Positions 33,628 to 64,000 of a stretch of DNA of 64,000 bases are shown piece by piece. Made by a program: the position numbers and the translations under genes. The stretch is taken from positions 78,709-142,708 of the forward strand of contig JAKLIQ010000001.1 in NCBI GenBank assembly GCA_022709525.1, given 5' to 3'. Origin of the DNA: Candidatus Omnitrophota bacterium. Its GTDB lineage: Bacteria; Omnitrophota; Omnitrophia; Omnitrophales; Aquincolibacteriaceae. Under the pieces are notes generated by a model. That model did no database searches and was not told where the DNA came from. It saw only the letters and a program-made list of their open reading frames with translations. Numbering within the stretch: position 1 is the stretch's first letter; each line of letters starts with the position of its first letter.

Positions 33628-34311
33628 ATGACTATGGAAGCGCACTGTTTCCAAAACGTTCAATGGATTAAATTTATCTTGCCGATCTTTGCGACATTTC
33701 TTGGCGCTTGGCTCGCTTTTTTCTTGCAAAATCGTAGGGATGCTAAAAAACAGGAAAAAACCAACTATGGAGTACTTTTAAAAACACAGGCGTTATTTTA
33801 TGAATATTTTGAAGCTATTTATTCGGTCAAAAAAGATTTTTTAGACCAGCATGCAAAAGACGCAGAGAGATCAACAAGGGTTAAGCATATTAGTCTTTGC
33901 CAAAAGTTCTCTGAGCTTGATTTCGAAGGCATATCCTTTATCCTTACAACAAAAAATCCGGACTTGTTTGGTGATATTGTATGCACCTATAGAAAGTGCG
34001 TTTCGGCTATAGAAGCCATTAATGAGCGCAATAAGCAATACGGAAAATACAGCGGAGGGATTGCCAAAAGTATCGATTTGGGAAGTGGCAAATCTCAGGT
34101 AGATTTAATATTTCTTAGAGATTTTACAGACATTATGTATAGGGAAACGGATCAGGTGCTACAACGCATTAAACAAATCGACGGTGAATTACAGCAATTC
34201 ATAAAAGAAAAATTTAAAGGGAAACATGCCCTGAAAGTTACTTTTGTCGAGACTGCGACGCAATGCGCCAAAGGAAATGCAGACGGAGGCGGTCATGAAA
34301 CCGTCGCTTAA
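33628..34311 (+). CDS. Membrane-anchored hypothetical protein (one N-terminal TM helix)
   Basis: RBS aaggag; TM segment FILPIFATFLGAWLAFFL; no recognizable domain. Confidence 0.4.
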   Translation: MTMEAHCFQNVQWIKFILPIFATFLGAWLAFFLQNRRDAKKQEKTNYGVLLKTQALFYEYFEAIYSVKKDFLDQHAKDAERSTRVKHISLCQKFSELDFEGISFILTTKNPDLFGDIVCTYRKCVSAIEAINERNKQYGKYSGGIAKSIDLGSGKSQVDLIFLRDFTDIMYRETDQVLQRIKQIDGELQQFIKEKFKGKHALKVTFVETATQCAKGNADGGGHETVA

Positions 34312-35161: not shown

Positions 35162-35214
35162 GGGATCATTTTCGATATAACTATCAAAGAAGTTGTTTTT
35201 ATCTGGAGCAAGTT

Positions 35215-35691
35215 ATGGGTCATTGGGATCGCAAGAATGTTCCGCAAAAAGGATGGGAATGCATTGATTTCTATGATTTATGTGCCGATGCGAATGAAGT
35301 TTATGCAACATGTGAAATGTGTGGGCAAGAGCGAATACGATATGTTCATGTAATGCGGCATCCAGATTTTTATGACGACTTGTTGGTTGGCTGTGTATGT
35401 GCCGGAAAAATGTCAGATGACTATGTCAATCCTGAAAAACACGAAAAGATTCTGAGTAATCGATCAAAACGTCGAAAAAGTTGGCTGAGCCGAACTTGGC
35501 GAGTATCGGCAAAGGGTAATGATTTTCTTAATGTTAAGGGGCATAACGTAACCATTTTTCCAGCAAAGTATCGATTAGGCCATTGGTGTTTTAAGATAGA
35601 CGATGATTTTAATCAAAATACCTATGAAGACAAAAATCGCGCAAAATTGGCGGCATTTGACTTGCTGCAAAAATATAACGAAAAAATTTAG
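35215..35691 (+). CDS. Cys-rich (CxxC...CxC) zinc-finger-like hypothetical protein
   Basis: CEMCGQ...GCVCAGK cysteine cluster. It is the last gene of an apparent three-gene operon. Confidence 0.4.
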   Translation: MGHWDRKNVPQKGWECIDFYDLCADANEVYATCEMCGQERIRYVHVMRHPDFYDDLLVGCVCAGKMSDDYVNPEKHEKILSNRSKRRKSWLSRTWRVSAKGNDFLNVKGHNVTIFPAKYRLGHWCFKIDDDFNQNTYEDKNRAKLAAFDLLQKYNEKI

Positions 35692-40900: not shown

Positions 40901-42662
40901 GTTTCTCGGTTCGACCACGACCGGCGGCGATATCGGCGCGATCGGCAACGAATTACGAGCCGTTAATTTTAACGGCGGTTCCTCCAATCTCGGCCACGAC
41001 ATTGCGGCCAACACCGTGGCCATTGATACGGGCGCCACCCTTACCCTGACCGGCGACCGGACCATCACGGGCGATCTGACGCTTGCGGGTTCCGGCGGTG
41101 CGGGAACGGGAACTCTCGAGCTTGGTGCGAACTTATTGACGCTTTCCGGAACTTATACGCAGGACGCGACCGCGCAAGTGTTGAGCTTATCTATTACCGA
41201 TGCGACAACTTACGGAAAGATCGACGCTTCCGCGACAGGAACGGCCGCTTTTAGCGCTGGAACGGTCAACGTGACCCTTGGCGGCGCGACGATCGCCAAT
41301 GGAACCCAGTTCACGATCTTTGATGCGGCCGGGGGCACCGTTACGACGGCCGGGATCACCGTGGCGGTTGTCGATAGCACGACAGTCACATTTAATCTTA
41401 GCAGCACGGGCGATGATCTGATCCTGACGGCCGTGACCGGACGGGGCGGAACTTTTCAAAGCGCCTCCACCAACGGAAATATCGAGGCCGTCGGCGCGGT
41501 GTTTGATCAGATCGAATCGGGAGGCGGCGGCACCGGCGACATGCAAAATGTTATTGATACGCTTAACGGCATGACAAGCGATGAGGAAGTCGCAAATGCC
41601 ATGGGGACCATGATGCCCGACATGAGCTCCGGGTCGATGCAGGCCAGTCTCAATCTGTCAGGGCAAAATTTCACGATGATCAGCAACCGCTTGGGCGGTA
41701 TGCGGAACGGTTTTCTGGGTGCCGGCGTCTCAGCCGGAGAAATGCTAAACGGCGTGGGCGTGTGGTTACAGGGTCTTGGCAGTCACATGAAACAGGATCC
41801 CCGCCGCGGGGTTGAAGGTTATCAAGCCAATCTGTTCGGAACCACGGTCGGCGCCGACAAAGTAATAGACCGGCATTTTCGCGCGGGTTTAGCCGGCAGT
41901 TACGGCTTTGCGCGCGTGAAATCCAAAACGGCGGGGAGCCCATCGGATGATATCAACAGCTTCCAAGGGACGATCTACGGGAGCTACGATTCTCTAGACC
42001 TCTGCGAAGCCCGTCAGAGCGGCCGGAAATCCTACGAAGCGGTGCGCAGCCAGGTCGAGAATTCCTGGTATGCGGACGGCATGTTCGCTTTTACGCAAAA
42101 CAATTATGATAGCCGCCGCGAGATCTGGCTGACTCCGGCAACAAAACGCGTCGCAAAAGCGGATCATCATGCTCAGCAATATTCCACCCAGTTCGAGACC
42201 GGTTACACCTTTGTATTCGAAAAAACAAAGGCGTTCGAATTTACACCGTTCGCGTCCTTGGGTTACAACTATCTGTATATGAACAAGTATAAGGAAGACG
42301 GCGCAAATGCTTTGAATCTTACGGTGGATGGGGAAGGCTACAATCAGCTCGAGCAGGGACTCGGGACAAAGCTCGCGTATCCGATCGCGGCAGAGAAAGT
42401 CGGGACATTCATTCCTTCGGTGAAGGCCGCCTGGCTTTACGATTATATTGCCGATGCATTCGAAACGACCGCAAGTTTTGCCGGCGGAGGGCCCGCCTTT
42501 AGCACCCAGGGAGCGAAACCCGCGAAGAACGGGATCCTCTTCGGCGCCGAGCTGGCATTCTTAAACAAAGGGAACATCACAGCGACTGGAAATTGGGATA
42601 TGGAGCTCAAAGACGAATATATGAGCAATACCTATTACGGTACCGTCCGCTACGATTTTTAA
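37998..42662 (+). CDS. Autotransporter (type Va) with a roughly 1,250-aa repeat-rich passenger and a C-terminal beta-barrel translocator
   Basis: Signal peptide; roughly 10 tandem repeats of about 70 aa (...GDVYA.TLNFG.DG...T..N..G...G.L.F.G...); C-terminal domain with MGTMMPDMSSG...GVWLQGLGSHMKQD...ending YYGTVRYDF. Confidence 0.75.
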   Translation: MKKAFSFFIALTLVFSPVMSAFGATAVTQDASGTWSSSGNHLDDGTIAEALTTADLTIGAGRTITVQNNNVADDNSGNKNTFVLGTVSNAGGTGSLIINTGASVVGDGTLNVTVGAATIGGSFTVENLGSSTKSTTVSITNGLTLNGAGNLTVANYASTDSKTVDLTVGGDFSTVTSSVMITSSVNAVTGANSTLILNGASISIAGGVTLYDNAGGSSILTFNRAGDQTITAAINGGGAGQGALNVTGTGDTTFNSAVGTTSLKEINIAAGSGKITTFGDIANATTITMTGAGTAQFDDAVTATDLNLSSTGTVILNATLTGDINFSDDGTVQLADGENITGNIATSNGGEGNLVLKGAHVVGGTVGTSSAALNTITADGLGTLTDLQGDVYAGTLNFGADGEVQVNGTAGFETVDNTTGSDQSGTLTFLGAATIAGNVGDSNSLKAVNAYGAGTISGGDGVDFQGDFNVDVLNFYGDGEVRIAGSATLTGNIANNTGGDNMGTVIFEGNATIASGIGLNTACLKIVDISGAVGTTVTVNDDLYAQDVLIDAGELYMNGDLRTSSLSTVKFQGDGLLTLANGGYQIVTSIVNDTGTDKQGTLAFEGDGTVTNSIGASGAALKAINANGNDTVYLQGDVYGDTVSFGNDGELDISGTAELGTVTNDSGSDGFGTLTFQGSGTITGDVGVSGASLNTINANGSGATLDLQGTVYVSALNFGNDGTINLADGKNLNGAVTNNSGSTAGTLNFLGDSTVSGDVSASGAELNQVGVNGAAGTNVLFKGDVYATTLNFGGDGSFTMGTKENIYADVTTAADGTGELIFKGSSNVNGNVGVSGTAVRLITLSGGSGRDVLFKGDVYAATLNFDDDGSATMGTNETLNANVTTSNDGAGELIFKGSGTVTGDVGAIGAVLRQISANGGSGRNVLLDGDIFATTLDFGDDGTVQIQDGKNLNATVTASAGAGTGTLTFLGSTTTGGDIGAIGNELRAVNFNGGSSNLGHDIAANTVAIDTGATLTLTGDRTITGDLTLAGSGGAGTGTLELGANLLTLSGTYTQDATAQVLSLSITDATTYGKIDASATGTAAFSAGTVNVTLGGATIANGTQFTIFDAAGGTVTTAGITVAVVDSTTVTFNLSSTGDDLILTAVTGRGGTFQSASTNGNIEAVGAVFDQIESGGGGTGDMQNVIDTLNGMTSDEEVANAMGTMMPDMSSGSMQASLNLSGQNFTMISNRLGGMRNGFLGAGVSAGEMLNGVGVWLQGLGSHMKQDPRRGVEGYQANLFGTTVGADKVIDRHFRAGLAGSYGFARVKSKTAGSPSDDINSFQGTIYGSYDSLDLCEARQSGRKSYEAVRSQVENSWYADGMFAFTQNNYDSRREIWLTPATKRVAKADHHAQQYSTQFETGYTFVFEKTKAFEFTPFASLGYNYLYMNKYKEDGANALNLTVDGEGYNQLEQGLGTKLAYPIAAEKVGTFIPSVKAAWLYDYIADAFETTASFAGGGPAFSTQGAKPAKNGILFGAELAFLNKGNITATGNWDMELKDEYMSNTYYGTVRYDF

Positions 42663-50793: not shown

Positions 50794-51051
50794 GAGTTTA
50801 AACTCCTCATTGGTTTTCTATCTAATTTTCTATCTAAATGGATGACACCCGCTGCGCTTCCGGAAAAATACCGAAATACTTCTGCTAGGTTATCGAACCG
50901 GAAGGGGGTTTTCTTCAGCTGTTTTTAATTGAGTTTCTCTCATTGGGTATAAAAATGATTATTAATGCTATAAATCACTATTAAAAATACTAGTTTGACT
51001 TGTAAATATTTAAATAGAATGTTAGAGTTCAAACAGAACAGGAGGCATATC

Positions 51052-51243
51052 GTGTCTTCGGATGAGTTGGATTGTAGATTGGCCCAGATCAAGGATAAAA
51101 AGCTCGCAAGCGAGACGCGGCGCTTCCTCTTGAATCTTTTTCTCCTCTTCGACGGAGACCCCCCGCCGCCCATCCAGCGCTATATCGTCGAGATCCTGGA
51201 ATTGCTCGAGGCCAAAGGAGTTCCCGCCAGGGTCCGTATTTAG
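51052..51243 (+). CDS. Small hypothetical protein (63 aa) in a low-GC region
   Basis: AGGAGG lies 6 nt before GTG 51052. It contains a PPPP segment. Support is weak. Confidence 0.25.
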   Translation: MSSDELDCRLAQIKDKKLASETRRFLLNLFLLFDGDPPPPIQRYIVEILELLEAKGVPARVRI

Positions 51244-51423: not shown

Positions 51424-51672
51424 ATGGAAAACGCCGCAGAAAAAGAAAAAGCTTTACCGGTCGATCAAGTTCCCGACAACGTATGGTTCCAGATCACATT
51501 CACGCTCGACCCTAAGAGTTATCGGCGTCTTTGGGCCTATGCCGAAAGCGTCAATTCAGGGGTTTCGAGTGTTGTCCGTGAAAAGATCTTGGAATTTCTA
51601 AAAGAGTTGAAACCCTTGCCGTCGGTCCGAAGATTTCATTTCGGATTAAATGATGAGGAAAGCCGCTCGTGA
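51424..51672 (+). CDS. Small ribbon-helix-helix (CopG/Arc-like) DNA-binding protein candidate, translationally coupled to the giant gene
   Basis: GGAGG lies 5 nt before ATG 51424. The predicted beta-strand VWFQITFTLD is followed by two helices, which is the RHH pattern. Its TGA stop overlaps the GTG start of the next gene (gtga). Confidence 0.4.
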   Translation: MENAAEKEKALPVDQVPDNVWFQITFTLDPKSYRRLWAYAESVNSGVSSVVREKILEFLKELKPLPSVRRFHFGLNDEESRS

Positions 51673-54600
51673 AAAGCGCTTTTTCGTATCCGGTCAGAAT
51701 CGTTGCGATCCTGACCGCTATTCTTTTTGCCTGGAATCAGATCGTTTGGGCGGATGGCATCCAGTCGGTGCAGCCGTATGATCCTGAAACTTCGCAACCG
51801 ACAACCTCGGCGATCTCTCAGGATCCTCCCGTCGCGCCGGAAACTCTTTCCCTTCCGGAAACCACTCAAGATTTTCTCACCAGCGATTTTCCGCTAAGCC
51901 CCGCGACCCCCGAATCTCCGGACGGACAAGGCGGCGGGGAACCCTTACAGACGGAGACTACGGCGGACGGGCACACCCTCTTTCATGTCTATGAAAATGA
52001 ATCGATCCAGGAGGCCATCAACGGAGCATCCGTAGGAGATACCGTATTTCTTCACGCGGGCATTTACAATCAATCCGTCACCTTAAGACAAGGAGTAAAT
52101 CTTAAAGGAGAAGATAGCGCCACCGTCATTCTTGACGGGCAGGGAATGTTCAGGGATGTGATCCTGGCGCAGGGGGATAATCTGATCGAAGGCATTACGG
52201 TCAAGGGTGGAGCGCCTTATGCCGGGCCAAAATCCGCGATCAGAATTGAAGGCAACAATGTTATTCTCCGGAACAGCCGGGTGGTCGATAACGCGGATTA
52301 CGGGGTCTACCTGCGCTCCGGAAATAATATCCTTATCGAAAGGGTGTTCTTTCAGAACAACCATCTTGCCATCCAGCATCCAAGCGCTGCGGCAACGAAT
52401 GTTGTGATCCGCTATAACACCATGGTGAATAACAGCATCGGGATCAATATTTTAAGCGGTGTTACTCCCAGGATCGAAAACAATATCATCACCGGAAGCA
52501 GTTTTTGCGCGATCTACGAATTCAACTGGAACGCTTACGCGACCGGCCAGTTAAGCCGCGGGTTTGCCGTTCTTGAGAACAACGTCTTTTCCGGCAACGC
52601 GTGGCGGCCGACCGCCTACGGAAGCTCGACGCCCCCGGTCGTTGAAAATTCAGCCGCCGGCAATATCACGGCGGACCCTCAATTCAATAGCGACTATTCC
52701 ATCCCCGAAACTTCGCCTGCTTACGGTAAAGGGGCGTTCTTGCCAGCAGCTTTTTTGTGGGCTGTTAACAGGGCAGATCAGTTTAATGTTTCTTACAGCA
52801 TCCAAACGATTTTCGAAAACGGCACCGCAAAAGGTTTTCGGATTCTTTACACCGAAGGATCTCATGAAGAATTCTATAACAACGGAGCCATGGTGCTTGA
52901 TATAACTCCGCCTCAAATCAGTTTTTCTTCGACAAGCATTTTTACCAATCAAGTCGATTATGAGTTCGTCTATATCGTGGACAACATTGAGAAAAAAGAA
53001 TTCTACCATCTCAATCCCGGTCAAAATCCGATTACCTTGGAAGCTGTAGATATTTTTGGGAACAAAGCGAGCCAAACCGTCATAGTAATGCTCGATCAAG
53101 TTGCCCCCACAGGGACACTCACTATCAATGATGGCGACCAAGAAACAAATTCCAGATTCGTCGTTCTTTCTTTTGATATTCAAGATGATTCGCCTTTGAA
53201 AGATGTTCGTTTTTCGTTGGATGGAGGAAACAGCTGGATGGATTGGGAAGAATTTGCAGCGTCAAAAGTAATAACATTCTCTGAAGATGAAGGGGAGAAA
53301 GAAATCCTTTGTCAATTGCGTGATGCGGCGGGGAATAGCGCTTCGTTTTCCGATGTGATCCGTTTTACGATGTCACCCTCCAAGCCGGCTATCCAGTTTC
53401 TTTCACCTTCAACAGCGACTAACCCTCTCTATTTGCTTCGCTATACCGTCAATGGAGTTGAGCGCCAGGAAACCTGGCAGCTTCAGCCGGGCGAAAACCA
53501 TTTGATGGTTTGTTCATCTTTTGGAACCTTGCCGGCATTTGGCGATCATGTTGTTGTTTTGGACCAAGAAGAAACTCCTTTGCCTGAAATGCCAGTATTT
53601 TCAGGATTGCCTTCGGCGCTTACTTCCGTCACCGCTTCGAATGGCCTTATTTTCAAATATGATCCCAGCACGTTGGTTGCGATTGAAAAGACCGGCGAAT
53701 ACACACTCTTCAATTTAATATTTGATGCACAGAATAACCTTACGGGAGGTGTGCTTCTTTTTGAAAATGGGGACCAGTTACTTTTCCAAAATAATAAACC
53801 AATTTATCGTTTAGCGCAGAGTGGTGAAAGAACGGTTTATAACGAAGACGGGTCTGTGGCCTATGTTTTGACCGTAGATAATAAAAAAATACGATTCGCC
53901 TATCATGTCGACATTTCCGGCAAGGTCATTGGCATAGCCAGCTTCGAAGAAACCGCTACAAGTCTTTACGATGAAAAAGGCCGACCGGTTTGGATTAAAA
54001 AAAGCGGCGGGATTTCCATTCTCTTTCAAGACGGATTTTTAAACACTTATACCGATGCTGCCGGCAATGTTTTTCATTATGAAGTTTCTATTCTTCGCGA
54101 AGGGAACGATCTGATCGGGTATCGTTCAGAACTTGTTTCGGTCGCTTTATCGGGGACATCGGTTGAGATGCCCATCGCGACCGTTCTTAACGATCTCGAA
54201 TCTTATCCTTCGATCAAGCCAACTATCGAAGAAGAAATTTCCAAAACCATCGAATATGACGCTGCCGGGAATATGAAAACTGTTATTTCCGGAAAAGGAG
54301 AAATTCTCCGGCTTGCCGCCCAATTGCCTGAAGCATTGACCAACAACGCGGGAGAAATTTTCCAATTTCAAAGCTCTATTTTGCAAGATAACGAATGGTT
54401 TTCGATGGCTTCGGACCAGGGAAGCTTGGAGCAGATTTTTGATGCCCAGGGTCAATTGGCTGGTATTCGTTTGAGCGATGGAACAGTTTTTGATATTTCA
54501 GCGCTCAGTTTGAACGAAATCAGATTGGAGGACGGCAGTATTTTAAGCCAGCTTGTTTGGAATGGGCAGAACTTAACGGGTTTCAGGCGCCAAAATACCG

Positions 54601-57600
54601 ATGGCTCCGCAGACATTTATCAAAATTCTTATCTCATGGAACATGTTGATCCTGAAGGGAATCGTACTCTCTATATTCTTTACAAAGAGCCCGGCAAGCC
54701 TACCCAACACAAACCTTCCGAAATCCATATGGCGGATGGAAGAACCTACAAGGTTATTGAATTTAAAAATGCAAGCGGCGCCTTAGAACGGATCAATGAA
54801 TTAACTTCGATAACGCTTCCTGACGGAGGAAAGGTTGAATTTGAGAACGGCGTTCCAGTCCGATATATCCAATATCAAGAAGTCCGTCTCGATGCTGAAA
54901 CATTGCCGGAACTTCCGAACGGTCAATCCTATATCCCGTCTTTGACTTTTCCCGAATTGGAACTTCGCGGTATCACGATCGACGCGACAGGCAATATTCT
55001 TTCCGGAGAGATTTTATACCGGGACGGTACCCAGCATTTAATAAAAAATGGAGTGCTTTATAAACAGATCACGCCTGGCGGCCAGATCGTGGAATTCAAT
55101 GAAAATTTTGAAAATACGTGGGATCCTCCGCAAGCTACTTTGCCCCAACCTCTTACTCAGGAAGAATTGGCTTACCGTAATGCTCTTATTGAAGCACAAC
55201 TTGATTACTTCAAAGAAGGCGTCGGCCTTCATCAGCTAACGGGGCTTCCGCTGGACAATTATCAAACCGGCGCCGCAGAACCCGCGGATTACAGCCAGGC
55301 AACTCTCGTCGGATTTTGGGCCGAGATCCTGGTTGCTATTGCAACGGGAGATTATGTCACTTCCAAAATGACGCAAGAAGAGGCCCTCTCAAAGCTTGAA
55401 AATCTTCTAGCGGCTTATCGTCAGGCGCAATTGGAAGCCGGTTGGAACGGAATGCTGGCCTTTTTTACGATCGTTGAAAGCCAGGAAGAAATTCTAGACA
55501 GCCAGGGGTTGCCTACGGGCGAAATGCGAACAGTTATTCATTATGAGAATAGATTTAATCAGTATGGCTTCGGGGACACGCTGAATCTTTCCGTAAGCCT
55601 GGCCTCTGTGATAGGAGCGCTTGAAGGGCGTTCCTTGGGCGCCTCGCTGGATATTTTTAAAAATAATATATTGGAGACAGCAAACAATATTTTAACGGAT
55701 CAAGAAGCCGGGTATGCCGCGTTCTACGATCCATCTAAAAAAAGATTCCATGGGTCTTACGCGAAGGACCCCGCTACCGGGACGTGGAAATTCGTCAAAG
55801 ATTTTTATATCGACCGTGTTTTCAGCGAATTCCGGACAGGGCTTATCTGGCTGGCCGCGAAGTACCCTCAATATCAAGAAGCCGTTAACGCGATTGATGT
55901 GGCTTTTCGTTCTTATCAGAGCGAAAGCGGCGAGGTTGTCGATAATGTTGCGCCGTGGGACGGCGGAGCTTTTCAGATGTTCTGGCCGCAAATCCATGTT
56001 GATGAGACCCAGTATCCCGAGTTCGCCGTAGCTCTCCGAAATTTTCTTTATACCCAAGCCGAATTTGTGAATCAAAACGATATCGCAGGATTACTTTCGG
56101 CTGGCGCGGATCCCGGGCAAGGATATGAAGGAAAGATCGGGGTCCCTTATGCCGCGGAGACCGATGATCCGCTTCATACCGATATCGGTTCGCTTTACGG
56201 TCTTGCTTCGGCATTCTCCGTGGCGCCGCATTACGTTCTGCAATTTTTTAAAAATATCGAAGCCGCTATTCCCGGCGTTCTTACCGGAGCGGGTTTTGCC
56301 GATTCCGTGAAATTTCTTACCGAAACCTCGACGGATCCTGTGAGCGGGGAAGAGCTCATCACGCGAACGCCGGTGCTGGCAACCGAATATTTTGGCGTCG
56401 ATCAAGCTTCCTTTGTGCTTTCGTTGCTTCAAACAAGCCGGAGTTATTTTTCAAATTACCTGAATCAAACCAACACCAAAAATTCTTTCGATAACCTTTA
56501 TCGGTCCTTTCAATTCAATTTAACACCGGTGGAAAAAAACTTGCCGCCGCCTCCCGATTTCGGGTTGACACAGGAAAATCTTTATACCGGAAGCGAGACG
56601 AATCCTGACGGCAATGGATATCCTTTGGTGAAAGAAGATGCCTTTATTTCTTCCCTTTTTGATCCGGAGTACGGGGAAGGACATATCTATAATTATCGAA
56701 CGCCCAGCGGTGCTTTCCATCATACCGGGATAGAATTCCTTTCTTCTGCCGGTGAAACGGTCTCCATGGGACTTCAAGAATTTCTTTTGCTTCCGGGTCG
56801 CCGGGATGCCGCCCGCTCTCTCTTTGAATCGCTTAACTTTGATCTTTTTGATCAGGCGAAAGCTCAGGGGGCTTTTTATACTCCCGGCTACGGTTTTGCC
56901 AACGGCGCTTTGGCCTATGTTCCTCCCATGGGAGAAGTTCAAACCGTTCAATTTGATTTTCGTGATGTCACCAGACCGGTAGGTTTGTGGGCCCAATTCC
57001 AGGGGATCGATCTCAACAATTTTGACTTTATCTCAGTTCCTATCAAGCTTGATTTAAATACCGATGTGGCCATGCGGCTCAAATTTGAATTGAAAGGAAT
57101 GGGCGAGGTTTTTATAACGCCGGAACTTACTCATGAATGGCAATATATTCAAGTGCCCATCAAAAAACCCTCCTCATTACTTACCGAGATCGCAGTGGTG
57201 GCTCAATCCATGGATGGCAGTCCCATCAAAGGGGAATTTCTTTTGGGGCCGCTTTCTACTTTTAAGATCCGGACAAACAATACCATTGACTGGCAATCAC
57301 TGATCGGAAAAACAAACGCTCAGCTTCAAAATCTTTTAAAAAGCGCCGCGTTAGAACAACCTAGTAGCGGCGGCATTGTCACCAAGGAAGAGATCCTCGA
57401 AGATTTCGTGATCGATTCCCAGGGGAAGCTTGTGAGCGGGATCTTGAGAAAAGCTAATGGCGAAATTCAGTATTATCAAAGCGGGCAACTGATGAAATGG
57501 GTTTTCCCGAGCGGAAGAACAGTGCTTTTTGAAAACGGGCTTGCGACCTTTGTTGTCGATCTGGCTCGCGGCCAGTTGGAAGAATCGCGATTCTATTATG

Positions 57601-60600
57601 ATCAAGACCTTCGCGGCCAGCTTCATTCGTTTGTGATTCAGGAGAATGACCGGAAAAGGGTTTTTAACGCTCAGGGAGAACTTGAGCTGCTTGTCGAAGA
57701 AGGATTTCTCGCACATTTTGAACAAGGCGAAATTTTATCCATTGAAACCCCCACGGCCACTTTAACCAACATTGTTCTTGCTGACGATCTCAGGATCTTA
57801 ACGGCACACGTCAAAATGAAAAATGGGTCGGAATTCGATATCGATCAAACGCAGGAACAGGCGGTCAGCTTTAGTGATGGCGTTAAACTTTTTTATTCAA
57901 ACCGGGAAGTCACGGCGATCGAAACACCGTCAAACGGCAGGACCGAACTTCAGTATGATTACGACGCGTTAGGCCGGTTAATGGGCGTCAATGTCTCGTT
58001 TCAAGAGGTTGGAAGCAGCGCTGTTGTCGAAATGAGCTTAAGTGATTTTTTGAATTTACCAAGCCGGGAGGTAGAAAAAACGTATTTACTGAAAGAAGGC
58101 GCTCTGGATCTGGACTCCGTTTCCTCCATTTTAGGATATAGCGTGGGGGGAACGGTCAATCATCTCTGGTTGGACGCGCGTAAAGAAGGCGGCAGTTTTT
58201 ACAATGGTTGGGCGTGCACAGAGCCGGCTTGTTGGAATTTCGGATACAACGCGAATACGCCTACGATCGGCATGGCGTTCAATTATGCCGCGCCTGTGAA
58301 TCTTTCCGACTATGATTTTCTTTCCGTAACGATCCGTTTGGATCCCGGCGTGACATGGCCGCAGGATTTCGTTCTTTCCGTCAAAGATGGTTACTGGGCA
58401 AGGTTTTCTTACGCCATTCAGGGGCTGACCGAGGAATATCAAACTTTTACTATTCCTTTGGCCGGGAAGACATGGGCCATGAACCAGCTGACATTGGAGA
58501 TCCAAGGCGGGGATCACGATCCCCTGGCTTATGGATCGATGGGCAAAGTATTTCTGGAAGATGTTTCCTTTTTTTCCATTCATGACGGGGAAAACCCCAT
58601 TTGGGAAGCCCAGGCGGGGATCACCGATGCTCAGATCCAAAACCTGAAGATCGAATCGGATAATTTGAATAGCGTCGGTGCTCACATAGCTTCTCAAACC
58701 CCTCTTCAATATGAAGCCCTTCGCGCATTTCTGGACCTTCCGACTTATATGATCTACCAGCAAGAAACGTCGGGGAGCGATTTCCAGCTCGAGCATTTCA
58801 GGCGTTTTGACGGAAGCCAGATCGATCTGGAAGGCCAAAACGTTAGCCGCGTCATTTTGCCCGATGGCACGATCAACGAATATTCAGCTACTGGGAATAC
58901 GGCGGAGGGAACCATTCTAGATCCCGGAAATGGTGTGAGTGATATCGGGAATATAAACTACAGCTATGGAGCTCTCCGGCGGATCACGCAAGCGGACGGG
59001 CGGCAATATGAGCTTTCTTATGAATTTGATCCAGGCGGTGCGGAAATAACGGTATTCCGCGACATACTTACGGGAGAAGTGAGGCGATTCAAAGGCGGAA
59101 AACTTATTTCTGCAACCGATCCCAATCAGATCCAGACTCATTATCTTTATGAAAATGGCGAATTGATCGGGGCGGAACTGACCTATCACAATCGCGTTCT
59201 CAATAGCACGCAATATTTCTTCAACGGGGAAGAAACTCAGGTCACGGATGAGCGGGGGACCACATGGTTCTATGATAAAGACGGTAAATTGCTCAAACAT
59301 ATGACGCGGGACGGTTTTCTCTATGAGTATTCGGAATTCACGCAGCCTCTTTCGGAAGGGCAGACAGTCGATCCAGATGATTATAAGAATGCCGTTTACG
59401 CAGGGAACGGTCTTACAGCCGTTACTCTTAAAGGTTATCAAGCTCCGAATGGTTCTTGGATCTTATGGGATGAGGAACACGGTTCCGAGATCCACTTGGC
59501 ATCAGGGGCGCAAGGAGTGAATCTTGTCTTTGACGGAGAGCAGAAAATTCAGAGCGGGCAGATCCAATTTCCGGACGGCATGCTTCTTGAGATCGAAAAT
59601 TATATCCCTGTTCGAGGCCGTCTTGCGAGCGGGGAAACTTTTGAATATACACTTCCACAAGCTACGGACCACGAAATACTTCAAGGTCCGGATGGCAGCT
59701 ATCTTGGATTTTGTTTCAAGATCGGCACGACTCGTTTTACTTACAGCCCGCTCGGAGAATTGGTTAAGACAGAGTCTGAGGACGGCGTCACTCATCTTTT
59801 CACCTATACGCGCAATCGTTGGGGAGACATCATAAATTACACAAATCTTGAACGCCGCCAGATCGCTTTCAACGGAGTCCCTTTTCCCAAAGAAGTAAAG
59901 CTCATTGCCGGAACGGATCAAAAACTCATGGATTCCGGAAATGAAATAGCGGTTCATAACGGGAATGGATTCATTGTTGGAATATACAAAGAAAGCGCGA
60001 ACCAGTGGGATGTTTATTCCGGAAGTTTTGCGTCTGAAGCGGACCGGATCGGTCTCAGACATTTTCTTTCAGAGATCAAGACCGGCGATTTCGTGGCCAT
60101 GACGGTTTCAGATTCCGCTTTTTCGCAAGTCGATGAAGAGATCTTTTCGCTTTTGGAAGGGATGGGGGCCGGAGCGGTTCGTCAGGCGGCCGCCAGTAAC
60201 AGTTCATGGAGTTTTTTTGGAAATGAAAATCTGAATTTAGGGGAGGGACGTGAAGCCGTTGGCGTAAATTCCTTCTCGACCCTGACAGAAACAAGTAGAT
60301 TTGAAAGCTTGATCAGGAATCAAAATCTTTTTTTTCAAAATGCCCCGATGTCTTTAAACATAGCCCCGGAGATTTCGGCGGGCTTTTCTCAGTTTTTGAA
60401 AGATTATCTTCCCCTAAAAGCGGCCCGAGACCTTCAGGCGGTAACCGTTTACAACAAACAGGATGAGATTGTGTTCTCAAGGCGGCTTGATGGGATCAAT
60501 TCCTATTATGAATTCGGGAAAGTAAGGGAAACATTCGACGGGAATGGCGAGCTTTTAAGCGTTCATGAATACGTTTGCCCCGAAACCGGCTGCCATAGCG

Positions 60601-63600
60601 CAGAAGATATGGCGCTTAAAAAGATCACGCTTGTGAAGAGCCGTCAGGATTTTGAAGCCCAGGCGATAGAACTTTCCGAACAGATAGAACAAGCGAAATT
60701 CGAAGCGCTTTACCGCCTGGCTTGGCAGGATGAGGTGGCGCGCGCCCAGATCAAAGAAAATGTAGATGCCGGCGTCGCCCAGATCAATGCACAGATATCC
60801 AGTTTGGAGTCCCAGCGTTTTAAAAAAGTTAAAGAATGTCGCAGCTTTCTTTTTTGGAAACATTGCGAAGAAAGGACCTACGAGGTCCCGGGTGTCCAAT
60901 CCGCCATCAATCAATTAGCGGGCCAGCGCGCCGAGCTTGTTCGGACCGGTGAAGAGCAGCTCGCGGCGATTCCTGGCGCGATGGCGGCGAAACAGATCGA
61001 GATCGAACAGGCGACAGCTCAAAAGATGGCCGAACTGGTCGCGCAAAAAGAAGCTTTTCTTTTGGATATCCTGCGCGAAGAAATGGAACCGATCATTACG
61101 GATTTTTATCGCCGCATCCTCGGCCGGGATGCCAGTGAAGAAGAATTCAATTCCTGGGTTGACCGGTATAAGGAGGCCGGGGCGCTTGATATTCAAATTC
61201 TTCAAACGGAATTGCAAACCTCCGAAGAAAAGATCCTTCGTGAAGCCCAAAAAACAGCCATCATCGAAAATATCAGGACCCTTTTAAATACTTATGTGGC
61301 CGGAACTCCGGAAGAAAAGTCAGCGATCCTGCAAACTTTACATCTCGAGGCTTCCGAGGCCGTGGATCTTAACGCGGAAGATGTGAACAAGATCCTCGAA
61401 TGGCTCGAAAGCCGCGATCTCCATTTCGGGCAATCCGCATTCTTATCCCTTAAGGAAATGCTCGCTTCTAAAGGCGTGGATGTCCCTGTGGAGACGATTG
61501 GAAAAGAAGCGATCCTGATCGACATCTTGGCCGGCGTGATCACGCGCTTCACGGAAGGCGATATTCTGATCTCAACATTTGCTCTCAACAGGACCGCGGC
61601 TATTCATGGCCAGGAATTTACCACGGTCAAATATTCCTATCAGGATCTTCTCGCGCTTTATCAAAGCGTATGCCCGGATCTTGCGAGCGCTTGCCCCTTG
61701 CGCGTGATCGCCCATATCGATGAAGACCATTTTGTGGTCATCAAGAAAGTGACAGATACCGAGGTTATCTATGAAGAGACCAATAAAGGGGCGAATGGCT
61801 CGGATGTCACGATCTCAAGAGAAAATTTTCTCAGGGTTTGGACCGCGGAAAATGATGCGGGACATTTAATTGTCTCGCAGGAACAGGCGCTTGAAACACA
61901 GAGGCTTTCCGATCAGGAAGCCATGAGGATAAGAGGCTCTTTCTTCGGGATCGACGATCTTATTTTTTGGGCTTTTGTGGCGAGCATGGTCTTTACGGTA
62001 GCGTCGGTCGCCGTTTCTTTCTTCAGTCCCGCGCTCGGGAAGATCCTCGGCTATGCGGCGCTTGTGGCCGGCATTGTGGGGATCGTGGCGAGCATCGGTC
62101 AGTTCGTCGTGCAGGGTCTTAAGATGGTTTTTTCCAGCATCTCAAGTCAGGGCTTTTTTTCTACCATCAAACAAGGCCTGGCTTATGTGGGAAAAGTTCT
62201 CTGGGCGCCCGTTAAGGCCGTAGGCCAGTTCATCCAGAACGGTTTTCAATTTCTAACAAGTGGTTTTTCAGCCGGGTTCGGGAGTTTTGGTTCCGGGATC
62301 GCCCAAATAAAAGATTTTCTTCTAGTCGGGGCGAACGAAATTTATAAAGACGGTGTTTTGATCGGCCGCGAATTTACATTTTCCCAGATCGCGGCCCGTC
62401 AATTAGTGGCGGCGGGACTTAATATGGGTGTTTCAAGCGGTCTGGAAGGTTTAGGGCTTGATCCTCAGCTTTGCCAGCTCGCGGGCGCTTTTGTGGGCGG
62501 GGGTTTTCTTGGGATCGGGCAGGCGGGTTCAAGTTTCATACGGTCGGGACTGCAGAATTTTGCCTTACAAGGCGTTTCCCAGCTTGGGCTTCGGCTCGGC
62601 CTCGCGCCGCCGATCGCAAGCGCCCTCTCACTTGTTGCCTCCACGAGCCTTACCGCTTTATTTGACGGCAGTTTTAACCTTAAAACTTTTTCTGATATCG
62701 CTCCCACCCTCGCATCCCAGCTCACCATGGGCGGCATGGAACTCATCGGCCGCTCCTTAGGCCTCGATCCCCGCATTACACAGCTTTTAGGACTCCCCAT
62801 ATCCTCAATCGTAGGAAATATTACAGCCCGATTTTCGGGAACTGTTATCGGGTATCGGGATGATGGTACGCCGATTTATGTGACAAGCCAATATGATACC
62901 GGTTCCCTCTGGGATTCCATAAAAAATTCCTTGGTTAATGGCATCCAACAAATCGGATTTGTTTTTGGGGGAGAATCTACGAATTCGATCTTTGGTTCTT
63001 TGCTGAGCAGCAGCATTTTAAATTCTGTCGGAAGTATTTTGGGCAGCGAAGGACTTTTCAATGGCATTTTGGATATTCTTAAAACGACGGTTCTTGCGCC
63101 CTTGAATCTTATAAACGGTATTGTCCAGACAACGATCCAAGGGCTTCGGAATTTCAATGATCTGATCCAGGAAAAAGGATTAATCGGAGCCTTTGAATCG
63201 TTAGCCACTTCCATTTTTAGCCGGAGTGCCCTCGAAAAGCTTCTTGGTTTTGGAGGGATTTCGGGGTTTTTAGGTTCTGCGGCTAAAAACTTGACCACGC
63301 TCGCAAATGGCCAGCAGGTGCAGGAACAGAAAGTCGACGGCTCCACATCTCTTTATTATGATCTGTTTGGAAATTTTATTGGCAAGAAAGAGAACGGAGT
63401 TACGCAGATCGGCACCTTTGGCATTAACTCTGTGGGCAAGTGGGCGCTTCTGGCAGGAACTTTTATTAGTAATGTAGTAGCTGATTGGGCATTTGCCGGA
63501 GAAGTAAATAATGGCCAACTCAAAAGCGGAAAGCTTTATCAAAACGGAACACTCGTAGGTGAATTTACACCTGAAAATAATGATGGAAGCATTATCATCA

Positions 63601-64000
63601 ATGGCAGTCACCCAGATGCTCAGCGGTTCAGTTCCTCAGGCGGATTCTGGGGCATGGTTTTTAAATTCATACCTTATGCCATGGAGTTTGTGTTCAACGG
63701 CGGCCTTCTTCAGGGGGTTAATTTTACTTCTGGTTCTTCCCAAAATACGGATTCCAATAAGCCATTTTTTGTTTTAGCGAATGGTGTTGGAAATCCTTCG
63801 GCTACAGGTTCGCCCGATTACATTAATAATTTAACATCCGATCTTCAAACAAGCAGCAATGGCCAGATTGCTTATGATGACATTATAAAACCACCGCTTT
63901 ATAATGCATTGCTCAATGGCGGGACAACCGACCAGGTAAAAGATATCCTGCATTGGATCGCAGAATCAAATACCCCCTATATCCGTTTGGACCTTGTCGG
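51669..64000 (+). CDS. Giant secreted multidomain protein, more than 4,100 aa, continuing past the window end. Domains in order: signal peptide; parallel beta-helix repeats; long uncharacterized region; YD-like repeats; C39-like papain-fold domain; TM-helix cluster; Gly/Ser-rich segments.
   Basis: Frame 0 is open from the stop at 51654 to the window end. No complete + ORF in that frame appears in the track, and manual translation found no stop. Signal peptide VKSAFSYPVRIVAILTAILFAWNQIVWA. Other landmarks are NNVILRNSRVVDN...NNILIERVFFQNN (PbH1-like) and YD-like motifs (YDYDALGRL, YSYGALRRIT..YELSYEFD, WFYDKDGKLL...YEYSEF). A C39-like pattern is HFGQSAFLSLKEMLASKG...HFVVIKKV...NFLRVW. Hydrophobic helices lie at about 61960-62115. 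Confidence 0.7.
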   Translation, partial: MKSAFSYPVRIVAILTAILFAWNQIVWADGIQSVQPYDPETSQPTTSAISQDPPVAPETLSLPETTQDFLTSDFPLSPATPESPDGQGGGEPLQTETTADGHTLFHVYENESIQEAINGASVGDTVFLHAGIYNQSVTLRQGVNLKGEDSATVILDGQGMFRDVILAQGDNLIEGITVKGGAPYAGPKSAIRIEGNNVILRNSRVVDNADYGVYLRSGNNILIERVFFQNNHLAIQHPSAAATNVVIRYNTMVNNSIGINILSGVTPRIENNIITGSSFCAIYEFNWNAYATGQLSRGFAVLENNVFSGNAWRPTAYGSSTPPVVENSAAGNITADPQFNSDYSIPETSPAYGKGAFLPAAFLWAVNRADQFNVSYSIQTIFENGTAKGFRILYTEGSHEEFYNNGAMVLDITPPQISFSSTSIFTNQVDYEFVYIVDNIEKKEFYHLNPGQNPITLEAVDIFGNKASQTVIVMLDQVAPTGTLTINDGDQETNSRFVVLSFDIQDDSPLKDVRFSLDGGNSWMDWEEFAASKVITFSEDEGEKEILCQLRDAAGNSASFSDVIRFTMSPSKPAIQFLSPSTATNPLYLLRYTVNGVERQETWQLQPGENHLMVCSSFGTLPAFGDHVVVLDQEETPLPEMPVFSGLPSALTSVTASNGLIFKYDPSTLVAIEKTGEYTLFNLIFDAQNNLTGGVLLFENGDQLLFQNNKPIYRLAQSGERTVYNEDGSVAYVLTVDNKKIRFAYHVDISGKVIGIASFEETATSLYDEKGRPVWIKKSGGISILFQDGFLNTYTDAAGNVFHYEVSILREGNDLIGYRSELVSVALSGTSVEMPIATVLNDLESYPSIKPTIEEEISKTIEYDAAGNMKTVISGKGEILRLAAQLPEALTNNAGEIFQFQSSILQDNEWFSMASDQGSLEQIFDAQGQLAGIRLSDGTVFDISALSLNEIRLEDGSILSQLVWNGQNLTGFRRQNTDGSADIYQNSYLMEHVDPEGNRTLYILYKEPGKPTQHKPSEIHMADGRTYKVIEFKNASGALERINELTSITLPDGGKVEFENGVPVRYIQYQEVRLDAETLPELPNGQSYIPSLTFPELELRGITIDATGNILSGEILYRDGTQHLIKNGVLYKQITPGGQIVEFNENFENTWDPPQATLPQPLTQEELAYRNALIEAQLDYFKEGVGLHQLTGLPLDNYQTGAAEPADYSQATLVGFWAEILVAIATGDYVTSKMTQEEALSKLENLLAAYRQAQLEAGWNGMLAFFTIVESQEEILDSQGLPTGEMRTVIHYENRFNQYGFGDTLNLSVSLASVIGALEGRSLGASLDIFKNNILETANNILTDQEAGYAAFYDPSKKRFHGSYAKDPATGTWKFVKDFYIDRVFSEFRTGLIWLAAKYPQYQEAVNAIDVAFRSYQSESGEVVDNVAPWDGGAFQMFWPQIHVDETQYPEFAVALRNFLYTQAEFVNQNDIAGLLSAGADPGQGYEGKIGVPYAAETDDPLHTDIGSLYGLASAFSVAPHYVLQFFKNIEAAIPGVLTGAGFADSVKFLTETSTDPVSGEELITRTPVLATEYFGVDQASFVLSLLQTSRSYFSNYLNQTNTKNSFDNLYRSFQFNLTPVEKNLPPPPDFGLTQENLYTGSETNPDGNGYPLVKEDAFISSLFDPEYGEGHIYNYRTPSGAFHHTGIEFLSSAGETVSMGLQEFLLLPGRRDAARSLFESLNFDLFDQAKAQGAFYTPGYGFANGALAYVPPMGEVQTVQFDFRDVTRPVGLWAQFQGIDLNNFDFISVPIKLDLNTDVAMRLKFELKGMGEVFITPELTHEWQYIQVPIKKPSSLLTEIAVVAQSMDGSPIKGEFLLGPLSTFKIRTNNTIDWQSLIGKTNAQLQNLLKSAALEQPSSGGIVTKEEILEDFVIDSQGKLVSGILRKANGEIQYYQSGQLMKWVFPSGRTVLFENGLATFVVDLARGQLEESRFYYDQDLRGQLHSFVIQENDRKRVFNAQGELELLVEEGFLAHFEQGEILSIETPTATLTNIVLADDLRILTAHVKMKNGSEFDIDQTQEQAVSFSDGVKLFYSNREVTAIETPSNGRTELQYDYDALGRLMGVNVSFQEVGSSAVVEMSLSDFLNLPSREVEKTYLLKEGALDLDSVSSILGYSVGGTVNHLWLDARKEGGSFYNGWACTEPACWNFGYNANTPTIGMAFNYAAPVNLSDYDFLSVTIRLDPGVTWPQDFVLSVKDGYWARFSYAIQGLTEEYQTFTIPLAGKTWAMNQLTLEIQGGDHDPLAYGSMGKVFLEDVSFFSIHDGENPIWEAQAGITDAQIQNLKIESDNLNSVGAHIASQTPLQYEALRAFLDLPTYMIYQQETSGSDFQLEHFRRFDGSQIDLEGQNVSRVILPDGTINEYSATGNTAEGTILDPGNGVSDIGNINYSYGALRRITQADGRQYELSYEFDPGGAEITVFRDILTGEVRRFKGGKLISATDPNQIQTHYLYENGELIGAELTYHNRVLNSTQYFFNGEETQVTDERGTTWFYDKDGKLLKHMTRDGFLYEYSEFTQPLSEGQTVDPDDYKNAVYAGNGLTAVTLKGYQAPNGSWILWDEEHGSEIHLASGAQGVNLVFDGEQKIQSGQIQFPDGMLLEIENYIPVRGRLASGETFEYTLPQATDHEILQGPDGSYLGFCFKIGTTRFTYSPLGELVKTESEDGVTHLFTYTRNRWGDIINYTNLERRQIAFNGVPFPKEVKLIAGTDQKLMDSGNEIAVHNGNGFIVGIYKESANQWDVYSGSFASEADRIGLRHFLSEIKTGDFVAMTVSDSAFSQVDEEIFSLLEGMGAGAVRQAAASNSSWSFFGNENLNLGEGREAVGVNSFSTLTETSRFESLIRNQNLFFQNAPMSLNIAPEISAGFSQFLKDYLPLKAARDLQAVTVYNKQDEIVFSRRLDGINSYYEFGKVRETFDGNGELLSVHEYVCPETGCHSAEDMALKKITLVKSRQDFEAQAIELSEQIEQAKFEALYRLAWQDEVARAQIKENVDAGVAQINAQISSLESQRFKKVKECRSFLFWKHCEERTYEVPGVQSAINQLAGQRAELVRTGEEQLAAIPGAMAAKQIEIEQATAQKMAELVAQKEAFLLDILREEMEPIITDFYRRILGRDASEEEFNSWVDRYKEAGALDIQILQTELQTSEEKILREAQKTAIIENIRTLLNTYVAGTPEEKSAILQTLHLEASEAVDLNAEDVNKILEWLESRDLHFGQSAFLSLKEMLASKGVDVPVETIGKEAILIDILAGVITRFTEGDILISTFALNRTAAIHGQEFTTVKYSYQDLLALYQSVCPDLASACPLRVIAHIDEDHFVVIKKVTDTEVIYEETNKGANGSDVTISRENFLRVWTAENDAGHLIVSQEQALETQRLSDQEAMRIRGSFFGIDDLIFWAFVASMVFTVASVAVSFFSPALGKILGYAALVAGIVGIVASIGQFVVQGLKMVFSSISSQGFFSTIKQGLAYVGKVLWAPVKAVGQFIQNGFQFLTSGFSAGFGSFGSGIAQIKDFLLVGANEIYKDGVLIGREFTFSQIAARQLVAAGLNMGVSSGLEGLGLDPQLCQLAGAFVGGGFLGIGQAGSSFIRSGLQNFALQGVSQLGLRLGLAPPIASALSLVASTSLTALFDGSFNLKTFSDIAPTLASQLTMGGMELIGRSLGLDPRITQLLGLPISSIVGNITARFSGTVIGYRDDGTPIYVTSQYDTGSLWDSIKNSLVNGIQQIGFVFGGESTNSIFGSLLSSSILNSVGSILGSEGLFNGILDILKTTVLAPLNLINGIVQTTIQGLRNFNDLIQEKGLIGAFESLATSIFSRSALEKLLGFGGISGFLGSAAKNLTTLANGQQVQEQKVDGSTSLYYDLFGNFIGKKENGVTQIGTFGINSVGKWALLAGTFISNVVADWAFAGEVNNGQLKSGKLYQNGTLVGEFTPENNDGSIIINGSHPDAQRFSSSGGFWGMVFKFIPYAMEFVFNGGLLQGVNFTSGSSQNTDSNKPFFVLANGVGNPSATGSPDYINNLTSDLQTSSNGQIAYDDIIKPPLYNALLNGGTTDQVKDILHWIAESNTPYIRLDLV

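Follow-up and report, generated by a model that had tools for sequence, protein, structure and literature searches.

The 64,000-nucleotide (nt) stretch analyzed here (the window) is from a Candidatus Omnitrophota bacterium (assembly GCA_022709525.1, contig JAKLIQ010000001.1, positions 78,709 to 142,708 of the forward strand) and ends inside a giant gene that starts at position 51669. This gene encodes a product of 4,357 amino acids (aa) and is preceded by a gene for an 82-aa ribbon–helix–helix (RHH) protein and followed, just past the window, by a gene for a 257-aa protein with a signal-peptide-like N-terminus (Table 1). The giant gene is one member of a large and previously undescribed family whose products are giant, probable polymorphic toxins predicted to be secreted; they share a conserved body and differ in exchangeable C-terminal tips, each of which is followed by an immunity-type gene of its own. 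At a probability of roughly 0.7, we read the locus as a polymorphic toxin–immunity operon composed of a small RHH regulator, the 4,357-aa toxin precursor, and the 257-aa protein as a periplasmic immunity-type protein.

The giant gene and the small genes upstream

Translation of window positions 51669–64000 on the plus strand yields 4,110 codons with zero stops, in agreement with the first-pass annotation of this DNA, which was made from the letters alone. With stops making up about 5% of random codons, an open frame of this length is not attributable to chance, and since the closest in-frame upstream stop is the TGA at 51654–51656, the GTG at 51669 is the earliest start possible. The missing 3′ end was recovered with a profile built from the products of the genes immediately downstream of three related giant genes; a protein database search with this profile led to a 257-aa protein (P0173) and from there to locus L026 of the source contig. 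The first 5,262 nt of L026 are identical to window positions 58739–64000, and the giant gene stops 742 nt beyond the window. For the source contig (JGI Ga0116241_10000025, 550,887 bp, sample 3300010429), the public annotation has the same two starts, for the RHH and the giant gene, and the same 4,357-aa product. The first-pass annotation had also raised the possibility that the frame is an assembly artefact; the sole hint toward an artefact or a decaying pseudogene, rather than a single real gene, is the lower GC content of the giant gene (0.46–0.49, versus 0.52–0.57 for most of the window), a difference from the core genes that the annotation had seen correctly. Against this explanation stand the call of the full gene on a 551-kb contig, the presence of identical pieces of the region in at least 11–13 independent assemblies (an exact look-up of the 82-aa protein finds 13 public contigs), and collinear homologs in more than 10 other assemblies that share 40–57% identity across more than 3,300 aa. 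The full-length collinear homologs have 4,190–4,980 aa and include a syntenic ortholog, P0008 (4,358 aa), whose gene also has the same neighbors. Based on the shared gene calls and these homologs, the giant gene is real and intact, and we consider the artefact or pseudogene explanation refuted.

The RHH gene is translationally coupled to the giant gene via the GTGA overlap that the first-pass annotation described. The same annotation suggested the RHH fold from a pattern in the translation, and comparison with structures and families bears this out: a profile of three orthologs matches the solved structures 2k1o (E 6e-4), 1x93 (E 8e-3), AvtR (E 0.016), and NikA (E 1), and two of the three orthologs match Pfam NikA-like (E 4.4e-5), RHH_7 (E 3.7e-4), and RHH_1; the window copy alone has no Pfam match. 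Homologs of the 82-aa protein are encoded directly 5′ of the giant genes in loci L009 (44% identity, E 1e-10) and L024, where the overlap with the giant gene is 4 nt. The gene order of L024 (gpsA, FadL, a 69-aa open reading frame (ORF), an 81-aa ORF, the giant gene, and a 265-aa ORF) is that of our locus. No RHH gene lies 5′ of the giant genes of P0084 and P0017, two more distant family members, and its occurrence only with the closest relatives marks it as a local regulator and not a hallmark of the family; we thus rejected a family-wide partnership. An antitoxin of a type II toxin–antitoxin system was likewise considered and rejected, with NCBIfam RelB matching only at E 0.069 and the partner being a 4,357-aa secreted protein. 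By analogy to the usual role of RHH proteins, local transcriptional regulation is the most plausible function of the gene. The 69-aa ORF of L024 (2289–2498) is a homolog of a 74-aa ORF found at the same place in the window, between the gene for a FadL-type porin and the RHH gene. This 74-aa ORF has no family (Pfam) match on record and may be a further operon member.

Table 1. Coordinates of the features at the giant gene locus (window positions unless locus L026 is named; residues are those of the giant protein)
Feature	Residues (aa)	Position	Strand	Evidence or remark
Conserved 74-aa ORF upstream of operon		51019–51243	+	called on source contig (L017 9596–9820)
82-aa RHH protein		ATG 51424 to TGA 51672	+	GGAGG 6 nt 5′ of ATG; stop overlaps giant GTG as GTGA
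Giant gene	1–4357	51669–64000 in window; stop TGA at window-extended 64740–64742	+	full product 4,357 aa
Signal-peptide-like N-terminus, ...AILFAWNQIVWA/DG	1–29	51669–51755	+	hydrophobic segment aa 9–27, VWA/DG; hydrophobicity and sequence inspection
Right-handed parallel β-helix	~113–340	52005–52688	+	Pfam Beta_helix E 4.2e-9, NosD E 3.8e-7 (Pfam aa 113–313); NCBIfam NosD/beta_helix
Ig-like domain(s) and YD-like repeat block 1	~405–640 and ~650–1130	52881–55058	+	Big_3_2, Big_13, Big_7 match homologs
GH192-like (clan GH-S) β-1,2-glucanase-like domain	~1150–1620	55116–56528	+	D1303 and E1387 at catalytic positions
β-rich segments and YD/RHS-like repeat blocks 2 and 3	~1640–2750	56586–59918	+	Pfam RHS_repeat E 3.6e-11
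ILEI/FAM3-like domain	2780–2852	60006–60224	+	Pfam ILEI E 1.4e-7, exceeds curated cut-off; 9/10 homologs match
Helical domain and C39-like papain-fold domain	3140–3405	61086–61883	+	Ser3256/His3354/Glu3370 at catalytic positions; AlphaFold2 and Foldseek
Double-glycine-type motif LSDQEAMRIRGS	3413–3424	61905–61940	+	predicted cis cleavage site after Gly3423-Ser3424
Two transmembrane helices	3431–3449 and 3463–3481	61959–62111	+	Kyte–Doolittle 19-residue means 2.29 and 2.25
Gly/Ala/Ser-rich low-charge amphipathic region	~3482–3760	62112–62948	+	last conserved part of body
Variable pre-toxin region	~3761–4030	62949–63758	+	identity to homologs falls from ~55% to 17–31%
Start of C-terminal α/β-hydrolase toxin domain (modeled)	4031–4357	63759–64000	+	only aa 4031–4110 inside window
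257-aa protein, signal-peptide-like N-terminus		L026 6001–6774 (window-extended 64739–65512)		ATG overlaps giant stop (ATGA)
IS200-like Y1 transposase		L026 6893–7483		Pfam E 2e-14
284-aa signal-peptide TPR protein		L026 7619–8473		beyond transposase

Interchangeable tips and their downstream partners

An exhaustive HMMER search with aa 3140–3800 against 1.84 billion representative proteins identified 296 relatives, some of them 49% identical, with 150 at E <= 1e-30, and the family amounts to about 300 clusters. A word-index protein search, by which very long proteins seem to be poorly covered, gave six matches for aa 3150–3750 and none for aa 3760–4110. For comparison we collected 16 loci and 152 proteins. 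Most relatives have 2,000–5,000 aa, with the aa 3140–3800 module placed 450–720 residues from the C-terminus, and their public names are "hypothetical protein" or "interleukin-like EMT inducer domain-containing protein." The members with a named organism are all Candidatus Omnitrophota, except for one fragment labelled Opitutales. Full-length relatives share similar signal-like N-termini, and in a ten-sequence full-length alignment identity is approximately 20% over aa 1–400, 45–65% over aa 500–3700, and 10–30% past residue 3700. By their final 400 residues, 119 relatives sort into 28 classes without detectable mutual similarity, the swapped tip being approximately 400–600 aa long, and collinear alignments of our protein with members of other tail classes stop at aa 3712–3979. 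Pfam identifies Ntox10 (E 3.5e-24), Peptidase_C92, RES, PT-TG (pre-toxin), Tle3 phospholipase, DUF676, and Abhydrolase_8 among the tail domains.

The gene neighborhoods vary together with the tips: every locus with a complete 3′ end contains a gene that starts at or overlaps the stop of the giant gene, and this gene changes with the tail class. Locus L004 shows this most clearly: the 85-aa ORF behind its Ntox10 tail matches Pfam Imm27 (E 5.9e-14), the family that Zhang et al. 2012 (PMC3482391) list as the immunity counterpart to Ntox10. The same locus contains an extra 126-aa ORF (14786–15166), 30–32% identical to the ORFs behind the L012 and L013 tails, which are unrelated to Ntox10; this extra ORF is a candidate orphan immunity gene. 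Tail swapping, co-varying downstream genes, and orphan immunity candidates are what defines polymorphic toxin systems, and the family members appear, from their sequences, to combine the N-terminal signal (by inspection), variable C-terminal toxin domain, and co-varying downstream gene of polymorphic toxins sensu Zhang et al. 2012. The resemblance to polymorphic toxins that the first-pass annotation had noted is thus substantiated by a shared body, unrelated tips, and a matching downstream gene for each. It had also named a C-terminal toxin domain, a variable tip, and an immunity gene as what might lie past the end of the window; each of these now has a counterpart in the hydrolase-type tip, the 28 tail classes, and, as a candidate, the 257-aa ORF.

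At our own locus, the tail contains the motifs GFSGG (Ser4135), GTED (Asp4265), and GATH (His4301), all three near invariant in its tail class, and fold modeling supports that the tip is an α/β-hydrolase with a Ser–Asp–His set. The 257-aa protein shares 53%, 44%, and 40% identity with its counterparts encoded behind the tails of L016, P0084, and P0008, respectively, and the three rank in the same order by resemblance of their tails to ours. Past this gene, the IS200-like transposase and the gene for the 284-aa TPR protein (L026 6893–8473) lie 0.9–2.5 kb beyond the giant stop, at approximately 65.6–67.2 kb in window-extended numbering. The 284-aa protein is 38–40% identical to partners of the other hydrolase subtype (L002, L008, and L015), and its gene looks like an orphan immunity gene. 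The signal-peptide-like N-termini of these two immunity-type proteins suggest that the toxin acts in the envelope.

Two further observations concern the surroundings of these genes. In L008 and L022, too, transposases (IS200 and IS110) lie behind the immunity candidates. Approximately 5 kb downstream of our giant gene (L026 10810–11365), a gene of the BrnT toxin family (PF04365) precedes and overlaps a 94-aa ORF without a family match, and the two may form a small toxin–antitoxin pair.

Architecture of the giant protein

The last conserved portion of the body is a succession of a C39-like domain, a short motif, a transmembrane hairpin, and a Gly-rich region. We modeled aa 3140–3425 with AlphaFold2 from 25 family sequences (pLDDT 95.3, pTM 0.92). 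In a Foldseek comparison, the second half of the model matches the C39 peptidase domains of LahT150 (6mpz, TM 0.72), ComA (5xe8/3k8u, TM 0.65–0.70), and PCAT1 with a probability of 1.0. Fold comparison alone made this connection: the sequence-profile search of solved structures gave no match for the region, and Pfam Peptidase_C39 matches weakly (E 1.2e-3, score 19.2, below the cut-off of 22). On the modeled fold, this is a true papain-fold domain of C39 type in which Ser replaces Cys. The nucleophile position is Ser in 107 of 111 sequences and Cys in the four most divergent members, the position of His3354 is His in all 111, and position 3370, 16 residues further on, has an acid (Glu or Asp) in 110; ComA has the same His-to-acid spacing. 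The papain-like pattern in the first-pass annotation was therefore correct as to the fold, with the correction that the nucleophile position holds Ser and not Cys.

Eight residues past the end of the C39-like domain begins the motif LSDQEAMRIRGS, of which a regular expression finds a single match in the whole protein. It resembles the double-glycine leader consensus M(R/K)ELX3E(I/L)X2(I/V)XG(G/A) (PMC3140520): written as L-S-x-x-E-x-x-x-I-x-G-[AS], it fits five of the seven defined positions. Within the family it is conserved at Gly(−2) (111/111), Ala/Ser(−1) (105/111), Ile/Val(−4) (110/111), Glu/Gln(−8) (85/111), and Leu/Ile(−12) (104/111). The first transmembrane helix starts six residues past the motif, and the sequence FSP(T/A)LGKILGYAA... 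of the hairpin is strongly conserved. Residues 3425–3800 contain 15% Gly, 35% Gly, Ala, and Ser together, and 13 GxxxG motifs; the Gly-rich region is conserved in 128 of 152 relatives, and a profile search of solved structures gave no PDB match for the transmembrane and Gly-rich region. We infer that the motif, hairpin, and Gly-rich region may, together with the C39-like domain, constitute a self-cleaving release and membrane-insertion module. The C39-like domain would probably dock the double-glycine-type motif and cut behind it, separating an adhesive N-terminal part of ~3,420 aa from a C-terminal part of ~930 aa.

Upstream of this module the protein is a mosaic. By sequence comparison, aa ~1150–1620 are a predicted GH192-like glycoside hydrolase domain of (α/α)6 type with both catalytic residues kept. 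A profile of aa 1130–1640 matches EeSGL1 of GH192 (8xuj_A) with E 1.8e-19 in two stretches over profile positions 39–450, D150 and E222 of the 8xuj chain aligning with D1303 and E1387. These two residues are E221 (general acid) and D149 (candidate base) in the published numbering, from which the chain is offset by +1 at both sites, and mutagenesis found both to be required for catalysis by EeSGL1 (PMC12102758). D1303 and E1387 are invariant in all ten closest homologs, five of which also match Pfam Glycoamylase (PF10091) weakly. The domain is present in only 8 of 152 relatives, which identifies it as an accessory of the closest subfamily.

The repeats that accompany this domain are degenerate YD/RHS-like repeats in three blocks across aa 650–2750, split by the GH192-like domain and other segments. 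Block 1 has YD motifs at aa 767 and 863 and follows an Ig-like unit (aa 407–615) whose copy number differs among homologs and which forms internal repeats in those with more copies. The best RHS_repeat stretch is aa 2081–2106; RHS_repeat matches nine of ten homologs, the YD repeats are also recognized by TIGR01643, and a profile of aa 2330–3000 weakly matches the Rhs core structures 8qjd, 8qjb, and 8qjc (E ~1e-3). Profile searches of solved structures gave no PDB match for aa 400–1130 or aa 1640–2330. The ILEI/FAM3-like region gives weak profile matches to the structures of FAM3A and FAM3C. The β-helix, for which the gene record of the source contig lists Pel9A-like_beta_helix, is separated from the signal-like segment by a Pro/Thr/Ser-rich linker. 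The signal-like segment closes with the motif WNQIVWA(D/E/G)G (aa 21–29, window 51729–51755), found near letter for letter in the distant members P0008, P0084, P0100, and P0146; a loose regular expression for motifs of this type matches 11 of 103 long members, many of the 103 being 5′-truncated. A plain Sec signal would not usually be conserved in this way, and the motif may point to a dedicated sorting route. Most elements that the first-pass annotation had placed along the protein are found again: the signal peptide, as judged from hydrophobicity, the β-helix behind it, and the hydrophobic helices and Gly/Ser-rich stretches. Its roughly 2,000 residues without motifs contain the Ig-like domains, YD-like repeats, and GH192-like domain, and its YD/Rhs-like block holds as to the repeats and not as to a canonical Rhs arrangement.

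The remainder of the window contains other potentially mobile or surface-related genes. A low-GC island (0.40–0.48) at 27254–35691 encodes a large serine recombinase (27254–29119, minus strand), a Fic-domain protein (31114–32151), a PLD-like nuclease (32187–32723), and four more ORFs without a Pfam match, and is probably an integrated mobile or defense element. The 1,554-aa autotransporter encoded at 37998–42662 (PF03797, E 1.5e-49) is a separate surface protein unrelated to the giant gene; genes for an ECF sigma factor, a zf-HC2 anti-sigma factor, and a LTXXQ/Metal_resist periplasmic protein follow it up to position 44839. Within the 64-kb window we found no tRNA genes and no Rfam families.

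The proposed operon and its alternatives

We posit that the giant precursor would be exported through its N-terminal signal and that its N-terminal part, with the β-helix, Ig-like domains, YD-like repeats, GH192-like glucanase, and ILEI lectin-like domain, would form a surface or extracellular fiber that binds target-cell glycans and digests them locally. The C39-like domain, with its Ser/His/Glu set, would recognize the adjacent double-glycine-type motif and cut after Gly3423-Ser3424, and the freed C-terminal fragment would enter the target membrane via the hydrophobic hairpin and the Gly-rich region, carrying an esterase/lipase-type hydrolase to the target envelope. The signal-peptide TPR-like protein would protect the producer and its kin. 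Cleavage, toxicity, and the export route are the steps that we infer.

Several observations weigh against this proposal. Taken naively, a Sec-type signal combined with an internal hairpin would leave the precursor anchored in the inner membrane of the producer, and no genes of type I, type V, or type VI secretion systems (T1SS, T5SS, T6SS) or for TpsB adjoin any examined locus. The near-universal Ser at the nucleophile position means that the C39-like domain may only bind the motif, which itself misfits the consensus at positions −7 and −13; HlyB is a precedent for a non-catalytic C39-like domain. The own tail has no Pfam match, including none to a Tle family; its fold model was made on the homolog P0084 (35% identical to the own tail) with moderate confidence (pLDDT 71.5), and its fold matches include carbohydrate and feruloyl esterases among many others, so that lipase, esterase, and thioesterase are not separable. 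Finally, our tail belongs to the commonest class, which accounts for 65 of the 119 tails, a predominance that also fits a conserved enzymatic function other than toxicity.

Two alternatives take up some of these observations. The protein could be a giant surface adhesin or attachment fiber of an epibiotic or predatory Omnitrophota bacterium, in which the hydrolase serves the producer in envelope remodeling or digestion of the prey surface, the hairpin anchors the fiber in the producer, and the TPR-like protein is an assembly partner or chaperone. Modules such as the β-helix and the Ig-like, lectin-like (ILEI), and YD-like ones typically occur in adhesins, TPR proteins are often assembly factors, and both the signal peptide with internal hairpin and the dominance of one hydrolase class would be expected; the published work on giant Omnitrophota proteins also favors attachment and cell-wall degradation (10.1101/2023.11.21.568195). 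This explanation does not account for the replacement of the tip by Ntox10 (with Imm27), RES, PT-TG, C92, and about 20 other unrelated classes, together with a separate overlapping downstream gene for each, or for orphan immunity-type genes beside transposases, and we consider it unlikely. Alternatively, the protein could be a membrane-anchored multi-enzyme for nutrient acquisition, its glucanase, esterase, and carbohydrate-binding modules degrading extracellular or prey polysaccharides without a role in inter-bacterial conflict. The catalytic residues of the GH192-like domain, a β-helix of pectate-lyase/NosD type, the ILEI lectin-like domain, and an α/β-hydrolase tail whose many fold relatives include carbohydrate and feruloyl esterases are in line with such a role; however, the GH192-like domain is rare in the family, the conserved core is the C39-like, transmembrane, and Gly-rich module with its variable tip rather than the enzymes, and sister genes carry toxin and immunity Pfam families. 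We regard nutrient acquisition as very improbable. For the body alone both readings are possible, and both leave the swapping of tips and partners unexplained.

Comparison with described systems places the proposed toxin–immunity operon nearest to the RHS/YD polymorphic toxins of the type II secretion system type with a Sec signal, for example the RHS proteins with Ntox10 that occur in Bacteroidetes and Verrucomicrobia (Zhang et al. 2012, PMC3482391). Shared features are the N-terminal signal, the long repeat-rich body, differing C-terminal toxins, adjacent downstream and orphan immunity genes, and, in one sister gene, the listed pair of Ntox10 and Imm27. Unlike those toxins, our protein has a far longer, mosaic body with β-helix, Ig, GH192-like, and ILEI modules and with sparse, interrupted YD repeats, and a C39-like domain, double-glycine-type motif, transmembrane hairpin, and ~300-aa Gly-rich region separate the toxin from the repeats. 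The releasing peptidases listed there are HINT, ZU5, PrsW, caspase, MCF1-SHE, PVC-metallopeptidase, and OTU, none of which is used in the giant protein, and that paper has C39 only among the toxin domains (PMC3482391).

The RHS_repeat/TIGR01643 repeats, the weak profile similarity to the Rhs core structures, and the variable C-terminal toxin are also reminiscent of canonical Rhs and TcB–TcC toxins. In our protein, however, the repeats form three interrupted blocks and the toxin (aa ~4031) begins more than 1,200 aa past the last YD block and behind two transmembrane helices, making encapsulation in a cocoon unlikely. Regular expressions for the DPxGL-type autoprotease motif have no match (DP.G[LWIM] in aa 1–4110, DP.G[LW] in aa 4001–4357), and Pfam identifies no PAAR, VgrG, or TcB-type domain in the giant protein or in the products of the flanking genes. 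We rejected a canonical Rhs cocoon toxin on the missing motif and the distance of the toxin from the repeats. A CdiA/two-partner secretion (TPS) protein, a T1SS RTX adhesin, and an autotransporter were rejected on the absence of matching domains from the giant protein: neither Pfam nor NCBIfam finds a TPS domain, FHA repeats, a VENN pre-toxin motif, or RTX, and there is no TpsB-type neighbor.

The C39 domains of PCAT1, ComA, and LahT have in common with ours the papain-like fold, the His and acid in place, a double-glycine-type motif, and a position directly N-terminal to transmembrane helices. The differences are the Ser in place of Cys, a presumed substrate motif in the same polypeptide, only two transmembrane helices, no ABC ATPase, and the setting inside a 4,357-aa secreted protein. 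In MARTX and in the clostridial toxins TcdA and TcdB, an internal cysteine protease and a hydrophobic translocation region free enzymatic effectors. The logic of our protein, with a receptor-binding part, an internal putative autoprotease, a hydrophobic/Gly-rich insertion region, and an enzymatic cargo in one polypeptide, is comparable; a relationship in sequence or fold was not found, the domain order differs, the putative protease is of C39 type with Ser, and the targets are, in view of the immunity genes, presumably bacteria. With the T6SS Tle lipase effectors and their periplasmic Tli proteins the locus shares a GxSxG α/β-hydrolase and a signal-peptide repeat protein as presumed immunity, and another tail class matches Tle3; unlike those effectors, the own tail lacks a Tle Pfam match, no T6SS genes are nearby, and the lipid substrate is putative.

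The Omnitrophota are ultra-small bacteria that occur widely, are for the most part uncultured, and are suspected to live on other cells. Discussion of their giant genes has so far centered on attachment and the degradation of cell walls. To our knowledge, the GH192-like domain would be the first link of a β-1,2-glucanase to a toxin-delivery protein; among the known substrates of these enzymes are glucans, periplasmic and cyclic, from Gram-negative bacteria (PMC12102758). The published Omnitrophota giants ("Archaeovorins" and dockerin-type proteins of 10,000–147,000 aa; 10.1101/2023.11.21.568195, 10.64898/2026.06.07.730766) resemble our family in phylum, C39-like domains, transmembrane segments near the C-terminus, RHS-like β structures, and a presumed action on other cells. 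They differ from our family, with its 2,000–5,000 aa and other architecture, in having at least 10,000 aa and dockerin, TSP3, SecA, or multi-enzyme content, and the passages searched in these reports contain no mention of variable toxin tips or immunity genes. In the literature searched we found no description of the release/insertion module, the GH192-like insert, or the restriction of the family to Omnitrophota.

We suggest, tentatively and with more doubt than confidence, that the Ser-type C39-like domain, the cis double-glycine-type site, the hairpin, and the Gly-rich region form an undescribed self-contained release-and-translocation device, with which Omnitrophota, a phylum suspected of predation or parasitism, would sever a toxin cassette of ~900 aa from a giant adhesive fiber and drive it into the envelope of another cell without known dedicated secretion systems. 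Should these proposed steps fail, an ordinary, though very large, member of the polymorphic toxins remains. If cis double-glycine cleavage is true, the family would contain a new type of releasing peptidase for polymorphic toxins and a natural Cys-to-Ser variant of the C39 fold. The family would provide Omnitrophota with a concrete, testable weapon, composed of a defined toxin tip (a putative serine hydrolase here; Ntox10, RES, and others elsewhere), matching immunity genes, and the conserved processing and insertion module, which offers three residues, Ser3256, His3354, and Gly3423, for point mutation.

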